Assembly (NCBI GenBank): GCA_964421015.1
Contig: CAYQUS010000001.1
Location: 172,726-236,725, forward strand
DNA length: 64,000 bases
Direction: 5' to 3'
Source: an uncultured Planctomycetia bacterium
GTDB lineage: Bacteria > Omnitrophota > Gorgyraeia > Tantalellales > Tantalellaceae
Shown here: positions 19 to 61,197 of the stretch, one piece after another
Numbering within the stretch: the stretch's first letter is position 1
How the letters are laid out: each line of letters starts with the position of its first letter
Notes under the pieces: model-generated
The model's database searches: none
Seen by the model: only the letters and a program-made list of their open reading frames with translations
What the model was told of the DNA's origin: nothing
Position numbers and translations under genes: made by a program

Positions 19-834
19 TTACTTTCGTCCTCCTGACATTTCAGCAGAACGGTTCCTGGCCGCCAGGACAGCCTCCTTCACGATCTCTTTAAAGCCCTTA
101 TCGGAAAAAACGGAAAGAGCCGCCTCTGTGGTACCGCCCTTGGAAGCCACCATCTTTACAAGATCTGCCGCTTCATGGTCAGACTTCCTTAAAAGTTCCG
201 AAGCCCCTGACAATGTGCCCAGAACCAGTTCTTTCGCCGATTCACGGCTTAACCCTCCGACTATCGCCGCCTCCATCATGGCCTCGGCCAGAGAAAAAAG
301 ATACGCCGGACCGCTGCCCGAAACAGCCGTGACCATGTCCATCATGGTCTCCTTAACATCAACGACATCCCCTATACATCTGAATATTTCCCTGACCCTG
401 TCTCCCGCCTGTACCTTTTCGGCTTGTTCGTTGAACGATAAAGCAGTTACCGACCGTCCTATACCGGCGCAAAGATTGGGCATCGCCCTGACAACCGGGA
501 TGTTTTTTCCGAATCCCGATACGATATCATTTATTCTGACACCTGCCATTACCGAAACTACTGTCTGGTCCACAAGATCGGCAGATATGGATCCCGACAA
601 TCCTGAAAAATCCAACGGTTTAACGGCTATAACTATCACATCGGACCCTCTTACTATCTGTGTCAACTCGCCGTTGCGGCATCCAACCCTGGAACAGAGC
701 TCCTCCGCTTTGGCGGCGTCTTTGTCATAAACATAAACATCTGCCTTCCTGAAATTGCCACGGGAAACTATACCGCTTGCGATAGCTCCGCCCATGTTCC
801 CGCACCCGATTATCCCTATAGACCCTTTTGGCAT
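19..834 (-). CDS. proC: pyrroline-5-carboxylate reductase
   Basis: N-terminal Rossmann motif IGIIGCGNMGGAI and overall P5CR-like sequence; 271 aa. Confidence 0.85.
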   Translation of the reverse strand: MPKGSIGIIGCGNMGGAIASGIVSRGNFRKADVYVYDKDAAKAEELCSRVGCRNGELTQIVRGSDVIVIAVKPLDFSGLSGSISADLVDQTVVSVMAGVRINDIVSGFGKNIPVVRAMPNLCAGIGRSVTALSFNEQAEKVQAGDRVREIFRCIGDVVDVKETMMDMVTAVSGSGPAYLFSLAEAMMEAAIVGGLSRESAKELVLGTLSGASELLRKSDHEAADLVKMVASKGGTTEAALSVFSDKGFKEIVKEAVLAARNRSAEMSGGRK

Positions 835-873: not shown

Positions 874-1929
874 TCAAAAATACTCGTCCATGACTCCGGC
901 TATTTCGTTTACCATCCTCTTAAGCGGGTTTTTCTCGGTCTGTCTTTTGGGACGAGAAACTTCCATCTGGTCGAGTATACCCAGAACAGTCGCGTACTGC
1001 GCTCCGTCCTCGGGCAGCTCCTCCGAAGGATGAGGCAAAGGCAACCCTGCCCTTATAGGAAGCCCCAGGAACTTCTCGGAAGAATGCAGAAAATCATCCG
1101 GGAGAGACTTTGTTCCCGAAACTACGATCTTCCTCATATCGCTCCATCCTCTCATCGACAGGACATTCCTGAAAAACCATCCGTACCCGTCGTACTCCGT
1201 TTCTCCGGCGCCCATATCGGGGCCATCGGCCACAGACCTGTCGAAAACCGAGCAGTTCGCCAGATTCCCGGCATTAAAAAGAAGTACCTCAGTCCTTTTC
1301 CCCCTTACGAAAAAAAAGGCCGTCCTGTCCAGTTTATCGTCTTCCGTGAGTATTCTGGAAGCGCATCCCATGGGGCTAAAAACAAAACCGGCCGGTATAT
1401 ACCCCGCCTGGGCAATGGTCTTTGAAAAGTTCCTCACGACGGTAGCTCCGATAGTCACTATGTTGACCTCAACGCCAAGTTTTACCGCCTCAAGTCCTTC
1501 CGGATCACGGATAAACCTTTCTCCATCGACCGAAAACCCCATGACCACCTTGTGCAGCACTTCCCTGTCGAGCGGTATCCTGGACATGGATCCTATCTCG
1601 ACGCATTTACGCACATCCCTGGATGAAACTTCACGACCGTACCTCGATATAAGAGTGGAAGCGGAAGATGTTAAAACCTCGACAGAAGGAGAGCTTATCC
1701 CGGCGTAGACCTCGCTGAAGGACATATCGGCTTTTTTAGAAAGGCCTTCCAGAAGAGACCTTAAATGTTCAGCGGCGGGATAAACTTCCGTTACCGAACC
1801 GTCCGACAAACCCGAAGACCGAGCCCGGTGAAAAGCCTCGACCACTGCCCGGCCACTTTTTTCCAAACGTACCGCCAAAGCGAAAGTATCTTCGCTGCCG
1901 GCGTCAATAACCGCGAATTTTTTTTCCAT
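874..1929 (-). CDS. ftsA: FtsA-like actin-family cell-division protein with degenerate nucleotide-binding motifs
   Basis: Aligns along its length to E. coli FtsA (VIDAGS phosphate-1, SVLTEDE-like RILTEDDK, C-terminal amphipathic tail); sits directly after ftsQ in the dcw cluster. The DIGGGTxD motif is VRGKRTE and GGGA is SGTK. Confidence 0.7.
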   Translation of the reverse strand: MEKKFAVIDAGSEDTFALAVRLEKSGRAVVEAFHRARSSGLSDGSVTEVYPAAEHLRSLLEGLSKKADMSFSEVYAGISSPSVEVLTSSASTLISRYGREVSSRDVRKCVEIGSMSRIPLDREVLHKVVMGFSVDGERFIRDPEGLEAVKLGVEVNIVTIGATVVRNFSKTIAQAGYIPAGFVFSPMGCASRILTEDDKLDRTAFFFVRGKRTEVLLFNAGNLANCSVFDRSVADGPDMGAGETEYDGYGWFFRNVLSMRGWSDMRKIVVSGTKSLPDDFLHSSEKFLGLPIRAGLPLPHPSEELPEDGAQYATVLGILDQMEVSRPKRQTEKNPLKRMVNEIAGVMDEYF

Positions 1930-17048: not shown

Positions 17049-17263
17049 TACTTGCAGTCCTTTACGCTTAAGTACGCTTTTTTCCCGATGTCACTGGAAG
17101 TAACTACGAACCTCCTGACCCCAAGATGTGACATCCCGTCCGGAAGAGCTCTGGCTTTTTTCACACGCTCCACTATGTTCACACAGTTTATGAACTCTCT
17201 CTGCTTTTTATTGAACTCCATAGCGTATCGTTTGTACATACCCACCCCCCGGGCTAAAAACAT
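17048..17263 (-). CDS. hypothetical protein, 71 aa
   Basis: Its ATG overlaps the mraZ stop (TGATG). It exactly fills the mraZ-rsmH gap together with the 79-aa ORF. No recognised domain. Confidence 0.45.
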   Translation of the reverse strand: MFLARGVGMYKRYAMEFNKKQREFINCVNIVERVKKARALPDGMSHLGVRRFVVTSSDIGKKAYLSVKDCK

Positions 17264-17700
17264 CAGAAATCCATAAGGTTTTCCGCTATCTGCTCGTAAT
17301 TCTCTTTTGAGTTTTTATAAAAATCCATCCACTTCTGTTTGTCCCATATCTCTATCCTGTTAGAAACGCCGACCACCATTATCTCCTTGGAGAGCCCGCC
17401 GTATTCTTTGAGGTAATCCGGGACAAGTATCCTCCACTGTTTGTCTGGCGACGCCTGAGAAGCCCCCGCAAAAAATATACGCTGGAATTTCCTGTACTCT
17501 TTTTTGGTGAAAGACATGGCCTTGAATTTACTTTCCTGCTGCCTCCACTCTTTCTCTGGAAAAACAAAAAGACACTCATCAAGCCCTCTCGTCAGGTAGA
17601 GTGTCTGGGAATCAGCTTCTTCAAGGGGCTGCCGGAACCGGGCCGGAATTATCACCCGATTCTTATCGTCTATGCTGTGAAGGTACTCTCCGTAAAACAT
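17263..17700 (-). CDS. mraZ: transcriptional regulator MraZ
   Basis: Two MraZ repeats with DxxxR motifs (DDKNRVIIP, DKQWRILVP); first gene of the dcw cluster. Confidence 0.9.
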   Translation of the reverse strand: MFYGEYLHSIDDKNRVIIPARFRQPLEEADSQTLYLTRGLDECLFVFPEKEWRQQESKFKAMSFTKKEYRKFQRIFFAGASQASPDKQWRILVPDYLKEYGGLSKEIMVVGVSNRIEIWDKQKWMDFYKNSKENYEQIAENLMDF

Positions 17701-17999: not shown

Positions 18000-18440
18000 C
18001 TACCAGTAAAGCTGTTCGAACCTTTCGGAATACCGCTTTATCCATTCCTGAGAAGCCTCCTGAATGGTCATTTCCCGGCCCAGCTGTAGAGACCTGAGCT
18101 CTCGGTATTCCTCTATGAGGTAGATCTGTTCTATGAGCTTTACCTTAAAAGCGTCGGAGTAAGTCACAAACTCTACCCCGACATTGTATAGGCCGGATTC
18201 ACGGTTCTTTTCCGTGTGCACAACACGGGCCTTTATGTGGAAGATCTTTCCGTAGAGAGGCATGTTAAGCCTTATCTTCATTCCGGGCTCAACGTGAGTG
18301 CGGGAAACGAACATCAGACCGCCCTCGCTGACGTTCACGGTATGTGTTTTTTCCTCCTCGGACTCGGTATCATCCACCTGGAACTCAAGAGGGTTAACGA
18401 GAAGATGCCGTAAGTATTTTCTTTTTTCCTGTTGCGTCAT
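18000..18440 (-). CDS. PilZ-domain c-di-GMP-binding protein
   Basis: RxxxR (RKYLRH) and N/DxSxGG (NVSEGGLMF) PilZ motifs. Confidence 0.7.
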   Translation of the reverse strand: MTQQEKRKYLRHLLVNPLEFQVDDTESEEEKTHTVNVSEGGLMFVSRTHVEPGMKIRLNMPLYGKIFHIKARVVHTEKNRESGLYNVGVEFVTYSDAFKVKLIEQIYLIEEYRELRSLQLGREMTIQEASQEWIKRYSERFEQLYW

Positions 18441-18968: not shown

Positions 18969-20534
18969 TCATAAACCCCTCTCTGTTTTTCTTTTTTTCC
19001 AGGCTATTTTGACCATTACGGCCAACAACGTAAGTACCAGGAGCAGCGCCATCCTTGTCGCCAGTACGTATGGCCTGTCAGCGTCTGGCACATTTGTCAT
19101 TCGTATGACGCTTAACCAGCCGTTTTTCTGGAAAAACCAGAAAAGAAGTACCGCTATAAGAAAAACCGGGGTGACGTACTTCATGACATATTTGTATATC
19201 CCCGGTATCCTGAGGTCGGCGCCGTGATGCACTTCCTCCCATGCCTTATTTATCCCGAAAACCCACCCGAAAAGTATGACCTCGAGCGTCGCGAACAGTA
19301 CCAGGCAGAATGTACCTCCCCAGAAATCAAGCTCGTCCACTACACCCTTTCCGAGAAAAAATATCGCGGCGTTGCAAAGAGTGAATGTCACGGCGGAAAA
19401 GATCTTTACGGCGCGGGCCCTTGATATATTGAACTCATCCTCCAGAAAAGATATCGCCGGCTGAGCCATGGATACGGAGGAAGTCACCCCGGCCAGGAAC
19501 AAGAGACTGAACCACAAAAAACCCATAATACCCGGGAACGGCATTTTGCCAAGGATGATCGGCATAGTTACAAAACCCAGGTTGAACGCGCCGGATCCGG
19601 CGATGTCGTGCATGGCTGCCGGGCCGAAAAAAACAAAAGCCGCCGGTATTATTATGCTGCCGCCGATAATGACCTCCGCCACCTCGTTCATACTTACTGC
19701 AGTAAGGCCCGACAGAGCCACATCATCGCCTTTTTTCAGGTAACTCGCGTATGTAAGTATAACCCCCATCCCCACGCTTAAAGTGAAAAAAACCTGTCCG
19801 GTGGCCGAAAGCCATACAGAAGAGTTCTTTAGAGCCGATAGATCAGGGTTCCACAGGTACCCCAGTCCGTTGAGCGAGTTCCACTCTGGTCTTGCAATGT
19901 CAGGAGCCCCCAGTGAAAGCACTCTCACTGCAAGTATGGCCCCAAAAACAAGTAACGTGGGCAGGGCAATTTTGCAAAAACGCTCTATCCCTCCCCGTAT
20001 CCCGTGGCTTAAGATGAAGACATTTGTGAGAAAGGTCAAAATAAAAAAACCGTATGCCGTAAAGATACCGGAAAAATACTGGTTTTTCTCCAACCCCTGG
20101 TATCCCCTGAGAAAAGACTGCATGCCTTCTCTTGTAGTTATACCCGCGTATTTTCCGGTAAGAGCGAAAAAACTGTACGCCAAGGTCCATGACTCAACGT
20201 AAGTGTAGTATATCATTATCACCAGCGGGCCGAAGATGCCTATCACCCCAAAGTATTTTATGAACCTGTTCTTGTCGCTCAAAGAATGGAACACTCCCGG
20301 CGCGGAGGAATGCTCAAAACCACCCCCGTAACGGCCTATCGACCACTCTATCCACATAAGCGGGATACCCACGAGAAGGAGAGCTATGAAATAAGGTATC
20401 ATAAAGGCCCCGCCTCCGTTACGCGCGGCCTGCACCGGGAACCTGAGAAAATTTCCAAGGCCTACCGCGGACCCGGCCACGGCCATTATGATCCCCAGTC
20501 TCGACCCCCAAGAATCCCTTATTCTCTTTTTCAC
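18969..20534 (-). CDS. neurotransmitter:sodium symporter family (SLC6/LeuT-like) transporter
   Basis: GLGNFLRFP signature near the N-terminus; polytopic membrane protein of 521 aa. Confidence 0.85.
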   Translation of the reverse strand: MKKRIRDSWGSRLGIIMAVAGSAVGLGNFLRFPVQAARNGGGAFMIPYFIALLLVGIPLMWIEWSIGRYGGGFEHSSAPGVFHSLSDKNRFIKYFGVIGIFGPLVIMIYYTYVESWTLAYSFFALTGKYAGITTREGMQSFLRGYQGLEKNQYFSGIFTAYGFFILTFLTNVFILSHGIRGGIERFCKIALPTLLVFGAILAVRVLSLGAPDIARPEWNSLNGLGYLWNPDLSALKNSSVWLSATGQVFFTLSVGMGVILTYASYLKKGDDVALSGLTAVSMNEVAEVIIGGSIIIPAAFVFFGPAAMHDIAGSGAFNLGFVTMPIILGKMPFPGIMGFLWFSLLFLAGVTSSVSMAQPAISFLEDEFNISRARAVKIFSAVTFTLCNAAIFFLGKGVVDELDFWGGTFCLVLFATLEVILFGWVFGINKAWEEVHHGADLRIPGIYKYVMKYVTPVFLIAVLLFWFFQKNGWLSVIRMTNVPDADRPYVLATRMALLLVLTLLAVMVKIAWKKRKTERGL

Positions 20535-30270: not shown

Positions 30271-30741
30271 TCACCGTGATATACCGGTTATCTTGTAGAA
30301 CATTACTCCTCCCGGAGTTTTTATCTCGACCACATCACCTTCCCTGTGTCCAAGAAGGGCTTTCCCGACAGGAGAGGTCACCGATATCTTATTTTCAGAG
30401 AAATCAGACTCTTCCTCAGAAACAAGCATATACTCGAATTCCTCTTTTGTTTCCTCATCGTGTACTTTTACCCTGGCTCCCAGCAAAGCCTCGCTGGCTG
30501 AAATTACGCTTTCGTCCATTATCCTGGCTCTCATAAGAAGATCTTCCAGCTCGGATATTCTTTTCTCGTTATGCGCCTGGGCTTCCTTCGCGGCATCGTA
30601 TTCCGCGTTCTCGCTCAGGTCACCGTGCGCTCTGGCTTCGGCAAGGGCTTTGGCTACCTCCCTGCGTTTTTCTCCCTTTAGGAATTCCAGCTCTTTTACT
30701 ATTTTGTCCCGGCCCTCCCGGGTTAAAGTGACATACCCCAT
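30271..30741 (-). CDS. greA: transcription elongation factor GreA
   Basis: Aligns with E. coli GreA from MGYVTLTREG...HGDLSENAEYDAAKE; the start is trimmed accordingly. Confidence 0.85.
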   Translation of the reverse strand: MGYVTLTREGRDKIVKELEFLKGEKRREVAKALAEARAHGDLSENAEYDAAKEAQAHNEKRISELEDLLMRARIMDESVISASEALLGARVKVHDEETKEEFEYMLVSEEESDFSENKISVTSPVGKALLGHREGDVVEIKTPGGVMFYKITGISR

Positions 30742-31069
30742 AACGCTGTCTCCTTCCTCATATTTGGTCATCTTATTTCCGAACGAGATTTTATTCCTGA
30801 TAGAGGATTATATAAGAACGGCCCTAATATGACAAACAAAATATGGCAGGAACCGAGAAAGTTTTGGCCTGGCTGAAACTCCTAAAGATCAACCCGCATT
30901 ACTCATTCGTGTACCGGAACCACCCCCTTACCCTTATAGTTCAGCGCTCAGGAATTCATTTCCCTGAGCGTAAAGCACTTTTTGTTAACTTACAAATAGT
31001 TTGTTTTTAGAATCTTGCTTTTTAGGATTTTACCGGTAAACTCTATTTTGAGTGTCGGATCGCTCTTTA

Positions 31070-31180
31070 AAACCCTGACGTGTCAAACGACAAAGGCAAA
31101 CTGTCTGAAAAGGCAGGGCGCAAAGTTCTGAGCCTAAAATCTTCTAAAAGAAGACATGGTTGTCAGACCGCCGAATTTGA
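31070..31180 (+). ncRNA. candidate c-di-GMP-I (GEMM) riboswitch aptamer
   Basis: CAAAGGCAAAC-TGTCT-GAAA-AGGCA-GGGCGCAAAG-TTCTGAGCCTAAAA parallels the V. cholerae Vc2 core CAGGGCAAACC-ATTC-GAAA-GAGTG-GGACGCAAAG-CCTCCGGCCTAAA as recalled from memory. It sits in the 5' leader of a plus-strand gene. Confidence 0.55.
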
Positions 31181-31211
31181 TAGCGAGTCGAGTTTCAGCC
31201 GACTTTTGGAA

Positions 31212-31254
31212 CCCTATCTTTGGACAGCGCCTTTGTTGATAGGGTTTTTTATTT
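31212..31254 (+). terminator. intrinsic terminator/attenuator hairpin just upstream of the GH gene's ribosome-binding site
   Basis: CCCTATC-(19 nt loop)-GATAGGG followed by TTTTTTATTTT, ending about 18 nt before the ATG at 31273. Confidence 0.55.
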
Positions 31255-31272
31255 TCCACAAGGAGGCTGAAC

Positions 31273-32358
31273 ATGTTCGCTAAGTCAAGAAGGAAACAAC
31301 TGTTATCGGCTGTACTTTTCGTGTCTTTTGTTATCTCGTACTTATGCCCCGCTGAACTGTACTCCGACTCATCCGCTATTATCCCGCATAAAGGAATGTG
31401 CTACGCCACCTGGGAGCAGGAAAAGTTCTCTTCGGAACATTCCGACGAGTCCCTCGCCAGGTTAAGCGCCCTCGGCACAGACCATATATCGCTCATTGTC
31501 ACCCGTTATCAGGAAAGATACAACTCCACAAAAATCGTGTCCAACGAAAGGACCCCTAGCGACAAAAGCCTTCTCCATGCGGCAAAGACCGCGCATAAGT
31601 TAGGGCTGACGGTTATGTTAAAACCGCACATAGACCTTATAGAGAAGGGTGACGGGACATATTGGCGGGCCGACATAGGTTTCAACTCTACGGAAGACTG
31701 GGAAGAATGGTTCAAAGAATACAGGAAGATGATAGTGCATTACGCCAAACTTGCCGAAAAGATGGAAGCTGATATTTTCTGCGTGGGAACGGAACTTTCT
31801 TTTACCAGCCAGAAAAAAGAAGAGTGGCTCAGGATAATAAGCGAAGTCCGGGAAGTTTTCAGCGGAAAACTGGTCTATGCGGCCAACTGGGATGAGTTCA
31901 AAAATATCGAGTTCTGGGACAAACTCGATTACGTCGGAATAGACGCCTACTTCCCCCTGTCATACTCCCCCAACCCTGAAGTCGAAGACCTCAAAAGAGG
32001 CTGGGAAAAATGGAAACTGGAACTAAGGGACTGGCATTCCGCAATAAATAAACCCATACTTTTCACGGAGCTGGGCTACGCCAGCACGCCTAACGCGCCC
32101 TATTCACCCTGGGAAGGGGGCATGCAGGGTAACGCGGATGTGGAGATACAGGCAAAATGCTACGAGGCCTTTTTTGAGACTATCTGGCAGGAACCATGGT
32201 TTGCCGGTGTATACTGGTGGAAATGGAACCCCAACGTTCGCTCCGGCGGAAAATACAACCGCAGATTTACCCCTCAGAATAAGCCGGCGGAGAAAATAAT
32301 AGAAGCCCATTATAGAGGGGAAGGCTCTGCCGTTTCCAGGATAGCCATGGCCAAATAA
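31273..32358 (+). CDS. secreted TIM-barrel glycoside hydrolase (clan GH-A-like; family uncertain)
   Basis: Signal peptide; motifs FCVGTELS and FTELGY typical of clan GH-A catalytic glutamates; WWKW near the C-terminus. Confidence 0.6.
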   Translation: MFAKSRRKQLLSAVLFVSFVISYLCPAELYSDSSAIIPHKGMCYATWEQEKFSSEHSDESLARLSALGTDHISLIVTRYQERYNSTKIVSNERTPSDKSLLHAAKTAHKLGLTVMLKPHIDLIEKGDGTYWRADIGFNSTEDWEEWFKEYRKMIVHYAKLAEKMEADIFCVGTELSFTSQKKEEWLRIISEVREVFSGKLVYAANWDEFKNIEFWDKLDYVGIDAYFPLSYSPNPEVEDLKRGWEKWKLELRDWHSAINKPILFTELGYASTPNAPYSPWEGGMQGNADVEIQAKCYEAFFETIWQEPWFAGVYWWKWNPNVRSGGKYNRRFTPQNKPAEKIIEAHYRGEGSAVSRIAMAK

Positions 32359-32391: not shown

Positions 32392-32847
32392 TCAGTCAAG
32401 GACCGACCAGTCGGAGAGTTTCTCTTCGGAGAAGGAAAGATATATCCTTGGCCCCTTAAAGTAAGTGGCCGAGGAACTTTTATAGACCCATCGCTCGGTG
32501 CCCTCTTTCTCGCCCGGAACTACCACTACAGCCTCTCCGAAATCTTTCTTTACGGAGGCCGCATCCATGCCTTTACTGATGCGGCCTTCATCTATGGATT
32601 TTTTTAGGAATTCGTATCTTGCGGTCTCGCGCTTATACTCCCTGACCATATCTTCCCTGTCTTTGGAAAGTGTCATGAGAGACGCCACCCCTGTCGGAGA
32701 CTTAACCCACTTTATCTTTTTCTCTTTTTTAGCAGCCGCAGAAACATCCGCCGGGATGACAACACATACCCACAGAAGAACTAAAATTGCCTGATAAATC
32801 TTGATCCCGATTTTCATTTTTCCCACCTGTCTCCGGCGAAAGGTCAA
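32392..32847 (-). CDS. secreted hypothetical protein
   Basis: Signal peptide (MKIGIKIYQAILVLLWVCVV) after an internal Met; 6 bp downstream of the PhoH2 gene. Confidence 0.45.
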   Translation of the reverse strand: MTFRRRQVGKMKIGIKIYQAILVLLWVCVVIPADVSAAAKKEKKIKWVKSPTGVASLMTLSKDREDMVREYKRETARYEFLKKSIDEGRISKGMDAASVKKDFGEAVVVVPGEKEGTERWVYKSSSATYFKGPRIYLSFSEEKLSDWSVLD

Positions 32848-32853
32848 AAGAGC

Positions 32854-34176
32854 TTAAAGCAGCTCCGCCGCCATAGAAGCCAGCGCGCTCCTCTCGCTCC
32901 TGGTCATAGTAATGTGCCCGAACATCTTTTGCCCTTTCATCTTTTCCACGCAATAGGTCAACCCGTTGCTGGATGAATCAAGATAAGGATTATCTATCTG
33001 ATAAGGATCTCCGGTGAGCACCATCTTTGTCCCGCTGCCGGCCCTGCTTATTATCGTCTTAACTTCGTGAGGTGTAAGGTTCTGAGCCTCGTCTATGACG
33101 ATAAAACTGTCGGGTATGCTTCTACCCCTCATGAAGGTCATAGCCTCAAGCTCTATTACCTCTTCCTTGATGTATTTCTCTATCTGTGACTTCGTGGTGC
33201 CTTTCACGTTCTTGTCTTTTTTCTCCGCGTTCAGTATGTATTCGAGATTATCAAATATAGGCCCCATCCAGCTGGACAGTTTCTCGTCTTTAGTCCCCGG
33301 GAGATAACCTATATCCCTTCCCAGGGGCATCACAGGCCTTGATATGAGTATCCTCTCATAAGAACCGTCCCTGACTACCTTCTGCAGACCCGCAGCTATG
33401 GCAAGGAGCGTCTTGCCCGTGCCCGCCTGACCCACGAGAGTGACCAGGTGTATATCGTTGTTAAGAAGGAGCTCTATGGCCATCGCCTGCTCCTTGTTCC
33501 TTGGCCTTATCGACATGACAGACATTTTGTTGAAAATAAGAGGCATGAGTATCCTGAAATCGTCCTTGAACCTACCTATTGCGGTATGCTTCGGGTTGGT
33601 CTTGTCCGTAAGCAGGGCGAACTCATTCGGGAAGAACTCCATGCCCTGCACGGAAAATTCCTTCTTGCTGTAGAAAGCGTCGAGTTGTTCTTTGTCCACG
33701 TCTACGGATCTCCACCCCTGGTAAAGCCTGTCAAAATCAACTTTCTGTTTTTCGAAATCAACGCTTTTTATTCCTAGCGCGTCAGCTTTGATCCTGGCGT
33801 TAATGTCCTTGGAAACGAATATTACCTGCTCCCCTTCTTCCTGAAGCACGTAGGCCGTGATCAGTATCCTGTTGTCGGCCAAGCTCTTGGACAAACCCAG
33901 ACCCGTCACCTTGTCATAGTCCATCCCGGTGGTTATTCTGAGAACCCCGCCGTTATCGAGAAAAAAACCCTGCCCCGGCTCACCCTTATGTCTGAGCTCG
34001 TCAAGCATTCGTATAGCCACACGGGCGTTACGCCCTTTCTCGTCATGATCTCTCTTGAACTTATCCAGCTCCTCGAGGACTTCTATGGGCAGGAGAACCG
34101 TATTGTCGGAAAAGGAGACCAGGGACTGGGGATTATGCAGTATTACGTTAGTATCCAAAACAAAAGTCTTATTCAA
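32854..34176 (-). CDS. PhoH2-type PIN-domain / PhoH-like ATPase fusion
   Basis: N-terminal PIN (VLDTNVILHNP) and a PhoH P-loop GQAGTGKT. Start trimmed to the TTG giving MNKTFVLDTNV, which has an AAAGGA ribosome-binding site. Confidence 0.75.
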   Translation of the reverse strand: MNKTFVLDTNVILHNPQSLVSFSDNTVLLPIEVLEELDKFKRDHDEKGRNARVAIRMLDELRHKGEPGQGFFLDNGGVLRITTGMDYDKVTGLGLSKSLADNRILITAYVLQEEGEQVIFVSKDINARIKADALGIKSVDFEKQKVDFDRLYQGWRSVDVDKEQLDAFYSKKEFSVQGMEFFPNEFALLTDKTNPKHTAIGRFKDDFRILMPLIFNKMSVMSIRPRNKEQAMAIELLLNNDIHLVTLVGQAGTGKTLLAIAAGLQKVVRDGSYERILISRPVMPLGRDIGYLPGTKDEKLSSWMGPIFDNLEYILNAEKKDKNVKGTTKSQIEKYIKEEVIELEAMTFMRGRSIPDSFIVIDEAQNLTPHEVKTIISRAGSGTKMVLTGDPYQIDNPYLDSSSNGLTYCVEKMKGQKMFGHITMTRSERSALASMAAELL

Positions 34177-34226
34177 AATTTTTCCTTTCGTTTTATTTGA
34201 ACGGAGAAATACTTTCCCTACAAAAA

Positions 34227-34703
34227 CTAAACAAAACGCTTCACCATCATAGACACGGAACGGCCCATATCGAGGCATTGCTCGGTTACCCTGGCGTCCG
34301 GAGCCCCTATGGAAACGACCCCGTAGTGATCCCCTTTGTGCCTCCCGAAAACTGTCATGCCGTGTATCATCATGGCGTTAAGTATCCCGGTGACTGTGGT
34401 CTCATTGCCACCGCCTATATTGGCCGCTGAGGTAAATGCCGCCCCTACTTTCCCTGACAGTTTACCATGAATTTTAACGGAGTCATCAAAAAATTTCTTT
34501 ATCTGCCAGGCCATGGAACCGTAATAGGTCGGAGACCCTATCACGATGGCATCGTATAAAAGGGCCTTTTCAACGGAAAAATCCTTAATGTCAGTCAGGT
34601 CCACGCTCACATCTCCGCTTTCCCCGGCTCCCCTAGCCACTATTTCTGCCATCGCTTTAGTATTTCCCCCTCTGGAATAATACACTACGGCTATTTTTTT
34701 CAT
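34227..34703 (-). CDS. flavodoxin-like FMN protein
   Basis: MKKIAVVYYSRGGNTKAMAE flavodoxin signature. Confidence 0.8.
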   Translation of the reverse strand: MKKIAVVYYSRGGNTKAMAEIVARGAGESGDVSVDLTDIKDFSVEKALLYDAIVIGSPTYYGSMAWQIKKFFDDSVKIHGKLSGKVGAAFTSAANIGGGNETTVTGILNAMMIHGMTVFGRHKGDHYGVVSIGAPDARVTEQCLDMGRSVSMMVKRFV

Positions 34704-57579: not shown

Positions 57580-58012
57580 CTTCCATCTTCCTCATCTTTA
57601 GTCTCTCCGAGAGCTTATGATCCCTGTATCCGCCGAGATGCAGCACCCCATGGGCTACGTAACGCGCGATCTCGTCGCGGAAGCTGACCCCATATGTCCT
57701 GGAGTTGCGATACGCGGTGTCGGAAGATATCGCGATATCCCCAAGAAAAAACTCTCTTTCCTTTCTGCCTGAAAAGCTCCCGCCGTCACTCTCCCCGGGA
57801 AAAGCCAGAACATCCGTCGGCCTGTCCTTTGAAAGATACCTTCTGTTAAGCGCCCTTATCTCTGAGTCCGTAACGAACGCTATATTCACAGAACACTTTC
57901 CCGCGCGTACCCTTGCGGCGGCGATGGAAGCCACTCGTTTTATATCACTGGGTATTATCTTCTTTTTTCGGTTTAGGTTTCTTATATTTATCAGGGTCTG
58001 CGTCCTTACCAT
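57539..58012 (-). CDS. ybeY: rRNA maturation endoribonuclease YbeY
   Basis: HGVLHLGGYRDH zinc-binding motif; start trimmed to MVRTQTL. Confidence 0.85.
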   Translation of the reverse strand: MVRTQTLINIRNLNRKKKIIPSDIKRVASIAAARVRAGKCSVNIAFVTDSEIRALNRRYLSKDRPTDVLAFPGESDGGSFSGRKEREFFLGDIAISSDTAYRNSRTYGVSFRDEIARYVAHGVLHLGGYRDHKLSERLKMRKMEDEILQAAGKKIWQ

Positions 58013-60227
58013 TTTTATTTTCCCTCTCTGGCGCGGGATCCGGGTAGTTAAGTCTTGTGTGATATACCCCAAGGAGAATTCTCTCAAAACTTGCCGCTAT
58101 CTTCTCTATATCCTTCAGGGTAAGATCGCACTCGTCAAGCTGTCCGTCTATAAACTTGTTGTTTATCATCTTTTTGACAAGGTTTTTTATACCGGCCGGC
58201 GTCGGATCTTCCATGGCCCTGCAGGCCGCTTCTACTGAATCCGCCAGAAGTATGATGGCGCTCTCTCTGGTCTGCGGACGAGGGCCGGGATATCTGAAAT
58301 CCTCTTCCTTCAAAAGGTCCTTATCCTTGGATTTCTCCATAGCTTTCTGATAAAAATAGGATATAAGGCTGTTTCCGTGATGCTGGGCTATAAGATCGGT
58401 AATGCGGGCGTTTATCTTGTGTCGCCTGGCCATTTCCACGCCTTCTTTCACATGTTTTGAGATTATGAGGGCGCTCATCGAAGGAGACAGGTTACTATGC
58501 CGGGATACCCCTCCTATCTCGTTCTCGCTGAAATACTCAGCTTTTGGGATCTTGCCTATATCGTGATAATAAGACCCCACTCTTGCCAGGAGACTATTGG
58601 CGCCCACTGCGTCACTGGCCGCCTCGGCCAGATTACCCACGAGTATACTGTGGTGGTACGTCCCGGGAGCCTCGATAGACAGCTCCTTGAGTATCGGGTG
58701 ATTCAAATCCGAGAGTTCAAGCAGGGTTATGTTCGTAGATACCTTGAAGAGATGCTCTAATATCGGGAGAAGCCCCATAACAAGAAAAGAGGAAAAAATG
58801 CCGCTTGCCATTCCCCATATACCGTCCCTGACAAAGAATTCCACGTCGAGATTGTTTATCAGTCCTACGCATACTATGGCCAGGAACTTTGCCGCTCCGA
58901 CAAAAAGTCCCGCCCTGAGAACATCGGACCTTCTTCGGCAATCCCTGATCGAGTATATACCTACCACCCCGCCGGTAAGAAGAACGAACATGGTTTCCGC
59001 CTTCCCTCCCGCCAGCAGCGATATCAGCAGCCCCATAAGCAACAGGCTCAAAAAACCTATATTTGGTCCCACCAGCAAAGTAACTATCATGCCCATAAAA
59101 GCCAGCGGCATAAAATAACTCGGCTGTGGCGACCTCATGACCATTTCGGCCAGAGCCAGGGTTATAGACATATTGAGAAGAACTATTGCTATGCTTTTAG
59201 TATCGTTAAGTGAATACTTTACGCCCGTGACCGAGAGATAAACGAACGCCAGAACCCACATCAGGGAGAAAAAGAGCATCGATCCGAGAAAAGACTTCAC
59301 GGTCGCGCCCTGCCTGAAAACCCCGCTTATGCGCATGAGTTGAGCCATGTCCTGTCCCGTGACCCGCTGTCCCTTGGCGACGATTATCTCGTTCTTTTTC
59401 ACCTCTAATTCCTGGGGAACGGGTTTCACCGTTGCCAGTATATGTTCCTTGCGCAATTTTGTGCGACCGGGATCAGCCACTATGTTCGGGGACAGATACA
59501 CGGAAATAACCTGAGGCAGAGACTGTTGCACCCTGCGATCCGAAGAAAAGGAAGCCTGAGTGAAATTATCGAGCACTACGTTAAGGCTATCCGCGGTTAT
59601 CACATTTGCCAAAGCTCTGGGAACTTCAGAACCCGTCTCCTCGTCTATTATCACTGCCCCCGAGAAATTCTGCTCTCTTGCGGTATTTACATCGGCCCTG
59701 GGGGCAAAACCCGCCAGAAAAACGTTCTCCGCTATTTCCCTGGCTTTCCGTGACAAACCTTGAATATCCTGATATTCCAGAAGACTCTTTATATCCTTTT
59801 CCTGAGCGCCTATTCCCGCGCGCTTGACTACCGCTTCAAGTTTTTCGTTCAGGAGCACTGCCTTGTTCTTCTCGGATTCCAGGATATCGAAAAAGTCTTT
59901 TATCCCGGCGAGGGATCTTTCCTCTACGGAAAGCTGCCTGAGAAAAACGTAAGGAGCCTTCTCCTCTTCCTTTTTTCTCAGAGATGCCGTTTTCTCTTCA
60001 TCCACTCCCCAGGAATAAACAAAATCATAAGGAGCGAAAACATCCTTAAGGGCCACGTCCCCCTCATAAACTCCCACCTGGTAAAGCTGCGGGTTAAGGA
60101 ACATGCTTACCAGGGCCCCTCCTATGAAAAGGAGTATCATGGCAACCGACAGGGTTTCGCGCCGGAATATGGCCCCCGCTACACCTGTGGCCGTAACTCT
60201 GATCTTCGTAATAATGTCATTGAACAT
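57945..60227 (-). CDS. pgpH: 7TM-receptor HD-GYP-like hydrolase (PgpH/YqfF family)
   Basis: N-terminal extracellular domain, seven TM helices, C-terminal HD domain (YHHSILV...YHDIGK); canonical position between phoH and ybeY. Confidence 0.8.
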   Translation of the reverse strand: MFNDIITKIRVTATGVAGAIFRRETLSVAMILLFIGGALVSMFLNPQLYQVGVYEGDVALKDVFAPYDFVYSWGVDEEKTASLRKKEEEKAPYVFLRQLSVEERSLAGIKDFFDILESEKNKAVLLNEKLEAVVKRAGIGAQEKDIKSLLEYQDIQGLSRKAREIAENVFLAGFAPRADVNTAREQNFSGAVIIDEETGSEVPRALANVITADSLNVVLDNFTQASFSSDRRVQQSLPQVISVYLSPNIVADPGRTKLRKEHILATVKPVPQELEVKKNEIIVAKGQRVTGQDMAQLMRISGVFRQGATVKSFLGSMLFFSLMWVLAFVYLSVTGVKYSLNDTKSIAIVLLNMSITLALAEMVMRSPQPSYFMPLAFMGMIVTLLVGPNIGFLSLLLMGLLISLLAGGKAETMFVLLTGGVVGIYSIRDCRRRSDVLRAGLFVGAAKFLAIVCVGLINNLDVEFFVRDGIWGMASGIFSSFLVMGLLPILEHLFKVSTNITLLELSDLNHPILKELSIEAPGTYHHSILVGNLAEAASDAVGANSLLARVGSYYHDIGKIPKAEYFSENEIGGVSRHSNLSPSMSALIISKHVKEGVEMARRHKINARITDLIAQHHGNSLISYFYQKAMEKSKDKDLLKEEDFRYPGPRPQTRESAIILLADSVEAACRAMEDPTPAGIKNLVKKMINNKFIDGQLDECDLTLKDIEKIAASFERILLGVYHTRLNYPDPAPERENKNGKDADPDKYKKPKPKKEDNTQ

Positions 60228-61197
60228 CAGATTCGCTCTCTTTTTTGTAGACCTCTACTATCTTCTGGACCAGTTCGTGTCTCACAACATCCTCACCCTT
60301 GAGAAAAGCGAATTTTATGCCGGGGATCCGGTCCAGTATCTCCCTCGCGTGCAGTAACCCGGATTTTTTTCCCCGCGGCAGATCGCTCTGGGTTATATCG
60401 CCTGCTATTACGGTTTTGGAATGGAACCCCAAACGCGTCAGGAACATCTTCATCTGATCCGGAGTGGAGTTCTGCGCCTCATCCATTATAATGAAAGAAT
60501 CGTTCAAAGTTCTGCCTCGCATATATGCCAGAGGAGCCACCTCTATTATCCCCTCAGCCAGGTATTCCTTTATCATATGCGCGTCCATCATGTCGTAAAG
60601 AGCGTCATACAGAGGTCTCAGGTACGGATTGACCTTCTCATACATGTCTCCCGGAAGATACCCAAGGCTTTCCCCCGCTTCCACGGCGGGGCGAGTGAGT
60701 ATTATCCTGGAAACAAGGTGTTTTCTTAACGCGTTTACAGCCATTGCCATGGCAAGATAAGTTTTCCCTGTACCTGCCGGGCCAATGGCAAAAACTATAT
60801 CGTTTTCTCTTATGGCGGCTATGTAGTTCCTCTGCCCGGAACTCCTGGGCTTTACATGCGGTCTCTTTGAACTTACATCGATATGGTCAGTAAAGCTATC
60901 GCCCATACGATCCTCTTCCTTTGAACTGACTATGGTTCGCCGTACGTCCCCGGCGGAAAGATGCCCTCCTTTTCTCACTGTGAGGAGCATCTCATTTACC
61001 ACCTTTTCAGCCTGAGACAACCGCAAGGCGCTGTCGCTCTTTATTTTGAGTATGCCTCCCCGGAAAGAAGTGCCTACCCCGAGAGACCTTTCTAAAGCTC
61101 TCAGATTTTCATCGCGATCCCCGAAAAGATCCCTCGCCTCGGAATCGTTGTCTATGATGATCTGTATCTCCGTAGCCAACCCCGCTATTTTATCCAT
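60217..61197 (-). CDS. phoH: PhoH-like ATPase
   Basis: P-loop GPAGTGKTYLAMA; PhoH family. Confidence 0.9.
   Translation of the reverse strand: MDKIAGLATEIQIIIDNDSEARDLFGDRDENLRALERSLGVGTSFRGGILKIKSDSALRLSQAEKVVNEMLLTVRKGGHLSAGDVRRTIVSSKEEDRMGDSFTDHIDVSSKRPHVKPRSSGQRNYIAAIRENDIVFAIGPAGTGKTYLAMAMAVNALRKHLVSRIILTRPAVEAGESLGYLPGDMYEKVNPYLRPLYDALYDMMDAHMIKEYLAEGIIEVAPLAYMRGRTLNDSFIIMDEAQNSTPDQMKMFLTRLGFHSKTVIAGDITQSDLPRGKKSGLLHAREILDRIPGIKFAFLKGEDVVRHELVQKIVEVYKKESESDVQ

Follow-up and report, generated by a model that had tools for sequence, protein, structure and literature searches.

Upstream of a gene for a secreted glycoside hydrolase, a 64-kb stretch of DNA from Candidatus Omnitrophota (hereafter the window) holds a segment that resembles the riboswitch aptamers for c-di-GMP. 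To which class does this segment belong, which gene does it serve, and in which direction would it act? An earlier note on the same DNA, which proposed a GEMM-type aptamer and a terminator, had placed them in a region of about 500 bp between the divergent genes of greA and of the hydrolase. The region measures 501 bp, and greA, with the Pfam domains GreA_GreB_N and GreA_GreB, occupies positions 30271-30771 of the minus strand. Here, we describe the aptamer, the downstream terminator and the alternative pairing that links the two. We hold with good confidence that the element is a canonical GEMM-I aptamer, that the 5' leader which contains it belongs to the monocistronic gene of a secreted GH113 enzyme of Candidatus Omnitrophota, and that it would act as a transcriptional OFF switch.

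The gene downstream of the leader, at 31273-32358 on the plus strand, encodes a protein of 361 amino acids. The protein is assigned to family GH113 by its Pfam match (GH113, PF22612, 1.7e-65) and by two conserved catalytic glutamates of the GH-A clan. These residues, E174 in the motif GTE and E266 in the motif FTE, are invariant in 30 homologues, and in the mannanase 4CD6 their motifs are matched by GCE and MEV, respectively, in the alignment. The closest solved structures are the endo-beta-1,4-mannanases 4CD6 and 3CIV (E 6e-35). The N-terminus, MFAKSRRKQLLSAVLFVSFVISYL, is basic and then hydrophobic, resembling a signal peptide. The gene is monocistronic, since the next ORFs are on the minus strand. 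Shortly after the end of the GH113 gene, and convergent with it, there is a PIN-PhoH fusion gene (32854-34278, minus strand; Pfam PIN_4 and PhoH), and a 151-aa ORF between the two (32392-32847, minus strand) has no Pfam match.

Judged by its sequence, segment 31083-31180 on the plus strand is an aptamer of the GEMM-I (class I c-di-GMP) type, unexceptional within an RNA class that is well known. At the gathering thresholds, Rfam gives two matches in the whole 64-kb window, one tRNA and one riboswitch aptamer of clan CL00126. The aptamer match, obtained by the kind of covariance-model scan that the earlier note had proposed as a check, spans 31086-31176 with 60.7 bits and an E-value of 7e-12. 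Its best-scoring family is c-di-GMP-I-GGC (RF03167), which has a gathering score of 59, and a second, unnamed family of the same clan, lower-scoring and overlapping, is also above its own gathering score on this stretch. The c-di-GMP-II family (RF01786) has no match at the gathering threshold, and none at E-values up to 10 in segment 30780-31290. Weak matches in the leader to mir-454, rnk leader, sR14 and CrcZ are far below the gathering scores and were set aside as chance; those to mir-454 and rnk leader merely reflect the terminator hairpin. The proposed GEMM assignment stands as regards a class I aptamer and is refined in one respect: the best Rfam family is RF03167 rather than RF01051, with the canonical A at the diagnostic base.

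The aptamer begins and ends with helix P1, which consists of segment 31083-31089 paired with 31172-31180. In the orthologous locus L004, P1 reads CCAU/AUGG, while it is CAAA/UUUG in the others. Inside P1 there are a short helix (31096-97 with 31120-21) and the first hairpin (31101-31116), which is capped by the GAAA tetraloop at 31107-31110. The P2/P3 helix, made of segments 31125-31134 and 31158-31168, encloses the distal hairpin at 31140-31154. The tetraloop is predicted to dock into a receptor composed of CCUAAA (31133-38) and CAUGG (31155-59). The string CAAAGGCAAAC-TGTCT-GAAA-AGGCA-GGGCGCAAAG-TTCTGAGCCTAAAA, on which the likeness to the Vibrio cholerae Vc2 aptamer had been based, is found at 31091-31139. 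In Vc2, residues G20, A47 and C92 contact the ligand; G20 contacts one guanine and C92 forms a Watson-Crick pair with the second (PMC4744006, PMC5888326). Alignment to the Rfam model identifies their equivalents as G31095, A31122 and C31171, respectively. The first is a G in 36 of 42 orthologous aptamers, the second an A in 41 of 42, and the third a C in 42 of the 43 aligned sequences. The equivalent of the universally conserved inter-helix pair C44-G83 (PMC4744006) is C31119-G31162. Among the orthologues, the columns of the GAAA loop, the receptor and the inter-helix pair show little or no variation. The parallel with Vc2 thus extends to the loop, the three contact bases, the receptor and the inter-helix pair. 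All testable defining features of class I c-di-GMP riboswitches are present, the bases that define the GGC and cGAMP variants are absent, and the aptamer would be expected to bind c-di-GMP.

The conservation of this element was analysed in 160 related loci that were fetched from genome and metagenome collections (single loci are given as L and a number). A look-up of the exact GH113 protein gave no record, and the organism was assigned from homologues of the protein, which come almost all from metagenome-assembled genomes of Candidatus Omnitrophota. Of the 20 genome loci that are closest, 14 have RF01051 directly upstream, on the strand of the gene, according to Rfam, and our own covariance model, R1, finds 43 aptamers across the 160 loci. 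An aptamer lies directly upstream of the gene in 28 of 30 GH113 orthologues (protein identity of at least 50%, loci with upstream sequence), and none was found at 35 Bacteroidota and other distant GH113 loci. In 40 distinct aptamers, 92.8% of the pair cells hold standard pairs, compared with 22-41% in controls with slid partners. Sixteen of the 21 pairs change on both sides, and these values were not attained by any of 500 shuffles. A leave-one-out covariance model, R2, was made from 16 orthologous aptamers that Rfam calls RF01051, with that of the window excluded. Its sole match in the 64-kb window is segment 31083-31178, with 88.3 bits and an E-value of 3e-20. From the covariation and the R2 match, we conclude that the aptamer is real, conserved and under selection for structure.

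Ahead of the aptamer, there is a candidate promoter composed of the -35 hexamer TTGCTT (31015-31020), a 16-nt spacer and the -10 hexamer TAAACT (31037-31042), on the plus strand. Both hexamers are kept in the leaders of five orthologous loci. A consensus promoter scan flagged instead TTAACT-17-TAGAAT at 30985-31013. The candidate promoter would leave a leader of roughly 35 nt ahead of the aptamer. Between the two, a stretch G(C/T)TCTTTAAAA, found at 31062-31072 in the window, is conserved in five orthologous leaders. It continues as AAAACCC in the window only, and this continuation could pair with the 3' arm of the terminator. Such a pairing, of segment 31069-31077, was seen in one constrained fold; the CCC is not conserved in the orthologues and the pairing was not relied on.

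The terminator is located between the aptamer and the start codon. Its stem consists of segment 31208-31218 paired with 31238-31248 (11 bp), which enclose a 19-nt loop, 31219-31237. The hairpin CCCTATC...GATAGGG that had been noticed before corresponds to 31212-31244, and the 11-bp stem is obtained when the flanking pairs are included. The U-tract, TTTTTTATTTT, covers 31245-31255, and 17 nt separate its end from the ATG at 31273, a distance previously given as 18. It is followed by the Shine-Dalgarno sequence AGGAGG (31261-31266) and by the start codon itself (31273-31275). The isolated hairpin folds at -15.0 kcal/mol. CCCTAT...ATAGGG and the T-run are kept in nine leaders, the window and eight orthologues. 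In an anchored alignment of eight leaders, the stem is 100% paired and has one covarying pair. A simple terminator scan did not report the hairpin, as the scan allows loops of 8 nt at most and the loop here has 19. With a GC-containing hairpin and a U-tract that precede the ORF on its sense strand, the element is predicted to be a rho-independent terminator. The proposed layout of an aptamer and an intrinsic terminator just ahead of the start codon of the hydrolase gene is therefore found in the window.

A second pairing would compete with both structures. The 5' half of the aptamer, CGACAAAGGCAAACUGUCUG, at 31088-31107, has its complement in the terminator loop, in the strand GGACAGCGCCUUUGUUG at 31221-31238, which could act as an anti-terminator (anti-aptamer) strand. 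The duplex of these two segments has a predicted energy of -23.9 kcal/mol. This anti-terminator helix is part of the minimum-energy fold of every transcript that ends at 31228-31262, in which no terminator is formed. The anti-terminator fold has -53.6 kcal/mol against -36.3 kcal/mol for the fold with the aptamer enforced and the terminator, tertiary and ligand energy not being counted. As the nearest-neighbour model ignores both of these contributions, the preference of 17 kcal/mol for the anti-terminator merely implies kinetic control. The helix extends as far as the base with which the 3' arm of the terminator begins, and a pseudoknot would need a zero-length loop across a 10-bp helix, from which we infer that the anti-terminator helix and the terminator are mutually exclusive.

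The alternative pairing is conserved. Most close orthologues have a motif CCUUU[G/A]UC at 43-60 nt 3' of the aptamer; in L089 and L009 it is farther away. In leaders of the terminator type, it is always in the 3' part of the loop, and it covaries with GA[C/U]AAAGG. In the anchored alignment of eight leaders of this type, which was used in place of a gapless 12-mer test on each locus, pair 31091:31235 is C-G in three loci and U-A in four. The anti-terminator helix is 85% paired in these eight sequences, and two of its nine pairs change on both sides, so that the covariation appears to lend it modest support. Further matching changes were seen by eye: L084 has AAUGGC with GCCAU, and L101 and L105, in which A replaces the base equivalent to G20, have AAUAGC with GCUAUU. 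The gapless 12-mer complementarity test, which has low power in AU-rich leaders, did not place several orthologues above shuffled controls.

The ribosome-binding site could take part in a further pairing. In the predicted folds, a small hairpin at 31185-31205 on the plus strand contains an anti-Shine-Dalgarno stretch, CAGCCGACUU (31196-31205). When the aptamer and the terminator are enforced, the ribosome-binding site pairs with this stretch, and the paired span is 31260-31269. Similar flanking complementarity, of the anti-Shine-Dalgarno type, was seen by eye in L001, L081, L003 and L005.

Based on the strands that compete, we propose the following mechanism. Binding of c-di-GMP would lock the aptamer and hold P1 and the junction that carries G31095. 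With the aptamer locked, segment 31221-31238 would remain unpaired and form the loop of the terminator hairpin (31208-31248), and RNA polymerase would terminate in the U-tract 31245-31255. In transcripts that read through, the ribosome-binding site would be paired with 31196-31205. Without ligand, the newly made loop strand would invade the 5' half of the aptamer, 31088-31107. The invading helix would abut the 3' arm of the terminator and be incompatible with the terminator stem, and transcription would continue so that the enzyme is made. The gene would most likely be shut off at high c-di-GMP, by a transcriptional OFF switch that is probably reinforced by sequestration of the ribosome-binding site. 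The earlier note had described an OFF/ON switch; its switch layout stands, and the direction, which it left open, is pointed toward OFF by the conserved alternative pairing. High c-di-GMP is usually linked to matrix production. One may speculate that repressing a secreted glycan hydrolase at high c-di-GMP fits this link.

The aptamer could also be genuine and either turn the gene on or control translation only. Both ON and OFF switches are known among the class I c-di-GMP riboswitches, and the global minimum-energy fold of the full-length leader sequesters the ribosome-binding site whatever the state of the aptamer. Moreover, several orthologues (L005, L007, L008, L082 and L085) keep the motif, as CCUUURUC, but have no clear terminator, so that species may differ in the level at which control is exerted, and translational control may dominate in those orthologues. 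For the window, however, we regard an ON switch or purely translational control as unlikely. The only conserved alternative pairing is that between the 5' strand of the aptamer and the terminator loop, with which ligand binding would free the terminator rather than disrupt it, and the terminator with its U-tract is kept in nine leaders.

The pairing of riboswitch and GH113 gene might mark a second-messenger regulon throughout the phylum Omnitrophota in which the ligand has shifted in some lineages, and the aptamer of the window might sense another or an additional ligand. If this were true, the shift would be to cGAMP in the orthologues with A at position 20, or to an unknown ligand, as hinted by the best match to the orphan GGC family. 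We consider it very unlikely. The orthologues in question have an A at the equivalent of G20, in the context AAUAGC or AAGAGC, in four leaders (L017:1263-1366, L101:446-543, L102:473-571 and L105:452-608). In L101 and L105, the downstream complementary strand is changed to match, as described above.

In another reading, for which we see only a slim chance, the window itself would hold a riboswitch for c-AMP-GMP (3'3'-cGAMP, GEMM-Ib) instead of a c-di-GMP sensor. The fold is the same, and the four leaders with A at the G20 position show that the lineage explores a signature of the cGAMP type; the window, however, has a G and not an A at 31095. An A at position 20 is reportedly the main determinant of cGAMP selectivity (Kellenberger 2015, Nelson 2015). 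Some G20 aptamers are promiscuous, so that weak binding of cGAMP by the aptamer of the window is possible.

Since RF03167 is the best-scoring Rfam family, the aptamer could instead be taken for a member of the orphan c-di-GMP-I-GGC class, which would sense a ligand other than c-di-GMP. We give this little credence. We take GGC to denote the bases at Vc2 positions 20, 47 and 92, in line with the consensus of the RF03167 model. Position 37 of that model is a G (GCGAAG), while the window has A31122 (GCAAAG), a mismatch at the base that distinguishes the variant. Furthermore, ordinary GCAAAG aptamers score as well or better on RF03167: that of L013 (1292-1406) has 50.5 bits on RF03167 and 49.0 on RF01051, and for L032, also of the GCAAAG type, RF03167 is the best match with 70.4 bits. 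The second CL00126 family, which passes its gathering score on the same stretch, also speaks against reading much into the label, and Rfam calls the closest orthologous aptamer, that of L001, RF01051 (66.6 bits). With an A at the variant base, ordinary aptamers that score equally and an RF01051 call for L001, the RF03167 label is not diagnostic. The remaining reading, in which the stretch encodes a small protein (ORF 31080-31283, 67 aa, GTG start, present in a mechanical list of ORFs) or is a decayed, non-functional relic, can be dismissed almost entirely, as conservation tracks RNA base pairs with compensatory changes and not the reading frame, and as aptamer, terminator and anti-terminator motif are intact and conserved across the orthologous loci.

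In several orthologous leaders, outside the window, the class I c-di-GMP aptamer is interrupted by two-hairpin inserts. Inserts of about 60-90 nt are found next to the G20 junction in L012 (1222-1300), L013 (1246-1300) and L016 (1121-1205). A duplicated GGCAAAC is used in their first hairpin, the stem of which varies between the loci with compensatory changes; the second hairpin is ACGUUAGAGA...UCUCUAACGU. Other inserts are located at the A47 junction (L041:1262-1355 and L009:1238-1290) and in the GAAA tetraloop of the first hairpin (L083:577-620 and L084:530-575). L012, L013 and L041 share the exact 10-mer CCGTTAGAGA, the core of an inverted repeat CCCCGTTAGAGA/TCTCTAACGGGG, and no other copy of this 10-mer is found in the 160 loci. 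In the window, CCCCGTTAGAGA shows no enrichment. The folds of the inserts are very stable, with z-scores of -4 to -9, and no Rfam family matches them. The inserts at the G20 junction, with z-scores of -5 to -9, may have come from a mobile palindromic element or may represent a structured expansion. L013, an Omnitrophota contig, has three c-di-GMP-I aptamers within 1.5 kb, at 562-657(-), 990-1086(-) and 1293-1408(+), two of which are on the strand opposite the GH113 gene.

Other genes of the window may also relate to cyclic dinucleotides. The PilZ gene reported at 18000-18440 is present, on the minus strand, with a Pfam PilZ match of 3.3e-12. It encodes a stand-alone protein of 146 amino acids and adjoins mraZ (17263-17700) and an SNF-family transporter gene (18969-20534). 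The product of the gene at 57948-60254 (minus strand) is a 7TM receptor whose intracellular domain is an HD hydrolase (Pfam 7TMR-HDED, 7TM-7TMR_HD and HD). We take this architecture to be that of a PgpH-type c-di-AMP phosphodiesterase, and the gene would presumably be the second one in the window that is related to cyclic dinucleotides. A motif scan followed by Pfam found no GGDEF or EAL gene in the 64-kb window. The GGDEF, EAL and HD-GYP candidates of the motif scan were rejected, being in Pfam unrelated proteins of the HD, M48 and transglutaminase types; two ORFs among them had no Pfam match.

A standard covariance scan would annotate this element, and nothing in it is new to riboswitch biology as such. 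Its modest interest is that a single secreted GH113 enzyme, conserved across the uncultivated phylum Omnitrophota, is connected to c-di-GMP signalling, and we found no paper specifically on the riboswitches of this phylum. The connection hints that the enzyme is part of a switch between sessile and dispersal, or attachment, states. The orthologous leaders, with their A20 variants and hairpin-insert aptamers, are natural variants that could serve studies of riboswitch evolution.

The aptamer of the window has the overall fold and the clan of c-di-GMP-I-GGC (RF03167), its best Rfam model, but the A at the A47 equivalent, where that class has a G, sets it apart by the defining base. It shares its scaffold with the c-AMP-GMP riboswitch of Geobacter (GEMM-Ib), from which it differs by the G at the G20 equivalent; the four orthologous Omnitrophota leaders mentioned above have an A there. 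With Vc2 (RF01051), it shares the three-helix architecture, the G20, A47 and C92 ligand contacts, the GAAA tetraloop with a CCUAA/AUGG receptor and the inter-helix C-G pair. Both also have the same kind of position, a 5' leader whose gene serves an extracellular function related to polysaccharides. The host phylum, Candidatus Omnitrophota, and the regulated gene, that of a GH113 hydrolase, are different. In addition, the anti-terminator strand of the window is placed inside the 19-nt loop of the terminator itself and does not overlap a stem arm.

The element would work in the manner of the known OFF riboswitches of the terminator type. In the Cd1 riboswitch of Clostridioides difficile, ligand binding is reported to favour termination. 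The expression platform of Bc1 from Bacillus thuringiensis contains rho-independent terminators (PMC11218506). Cd1 and Bc1 have the layout found in the window, a class I aptamer followed by a rho-independent terminator. The window differs from both in having a single terminator and an extra helix that is predicted to sequester the ribosome-binding site.
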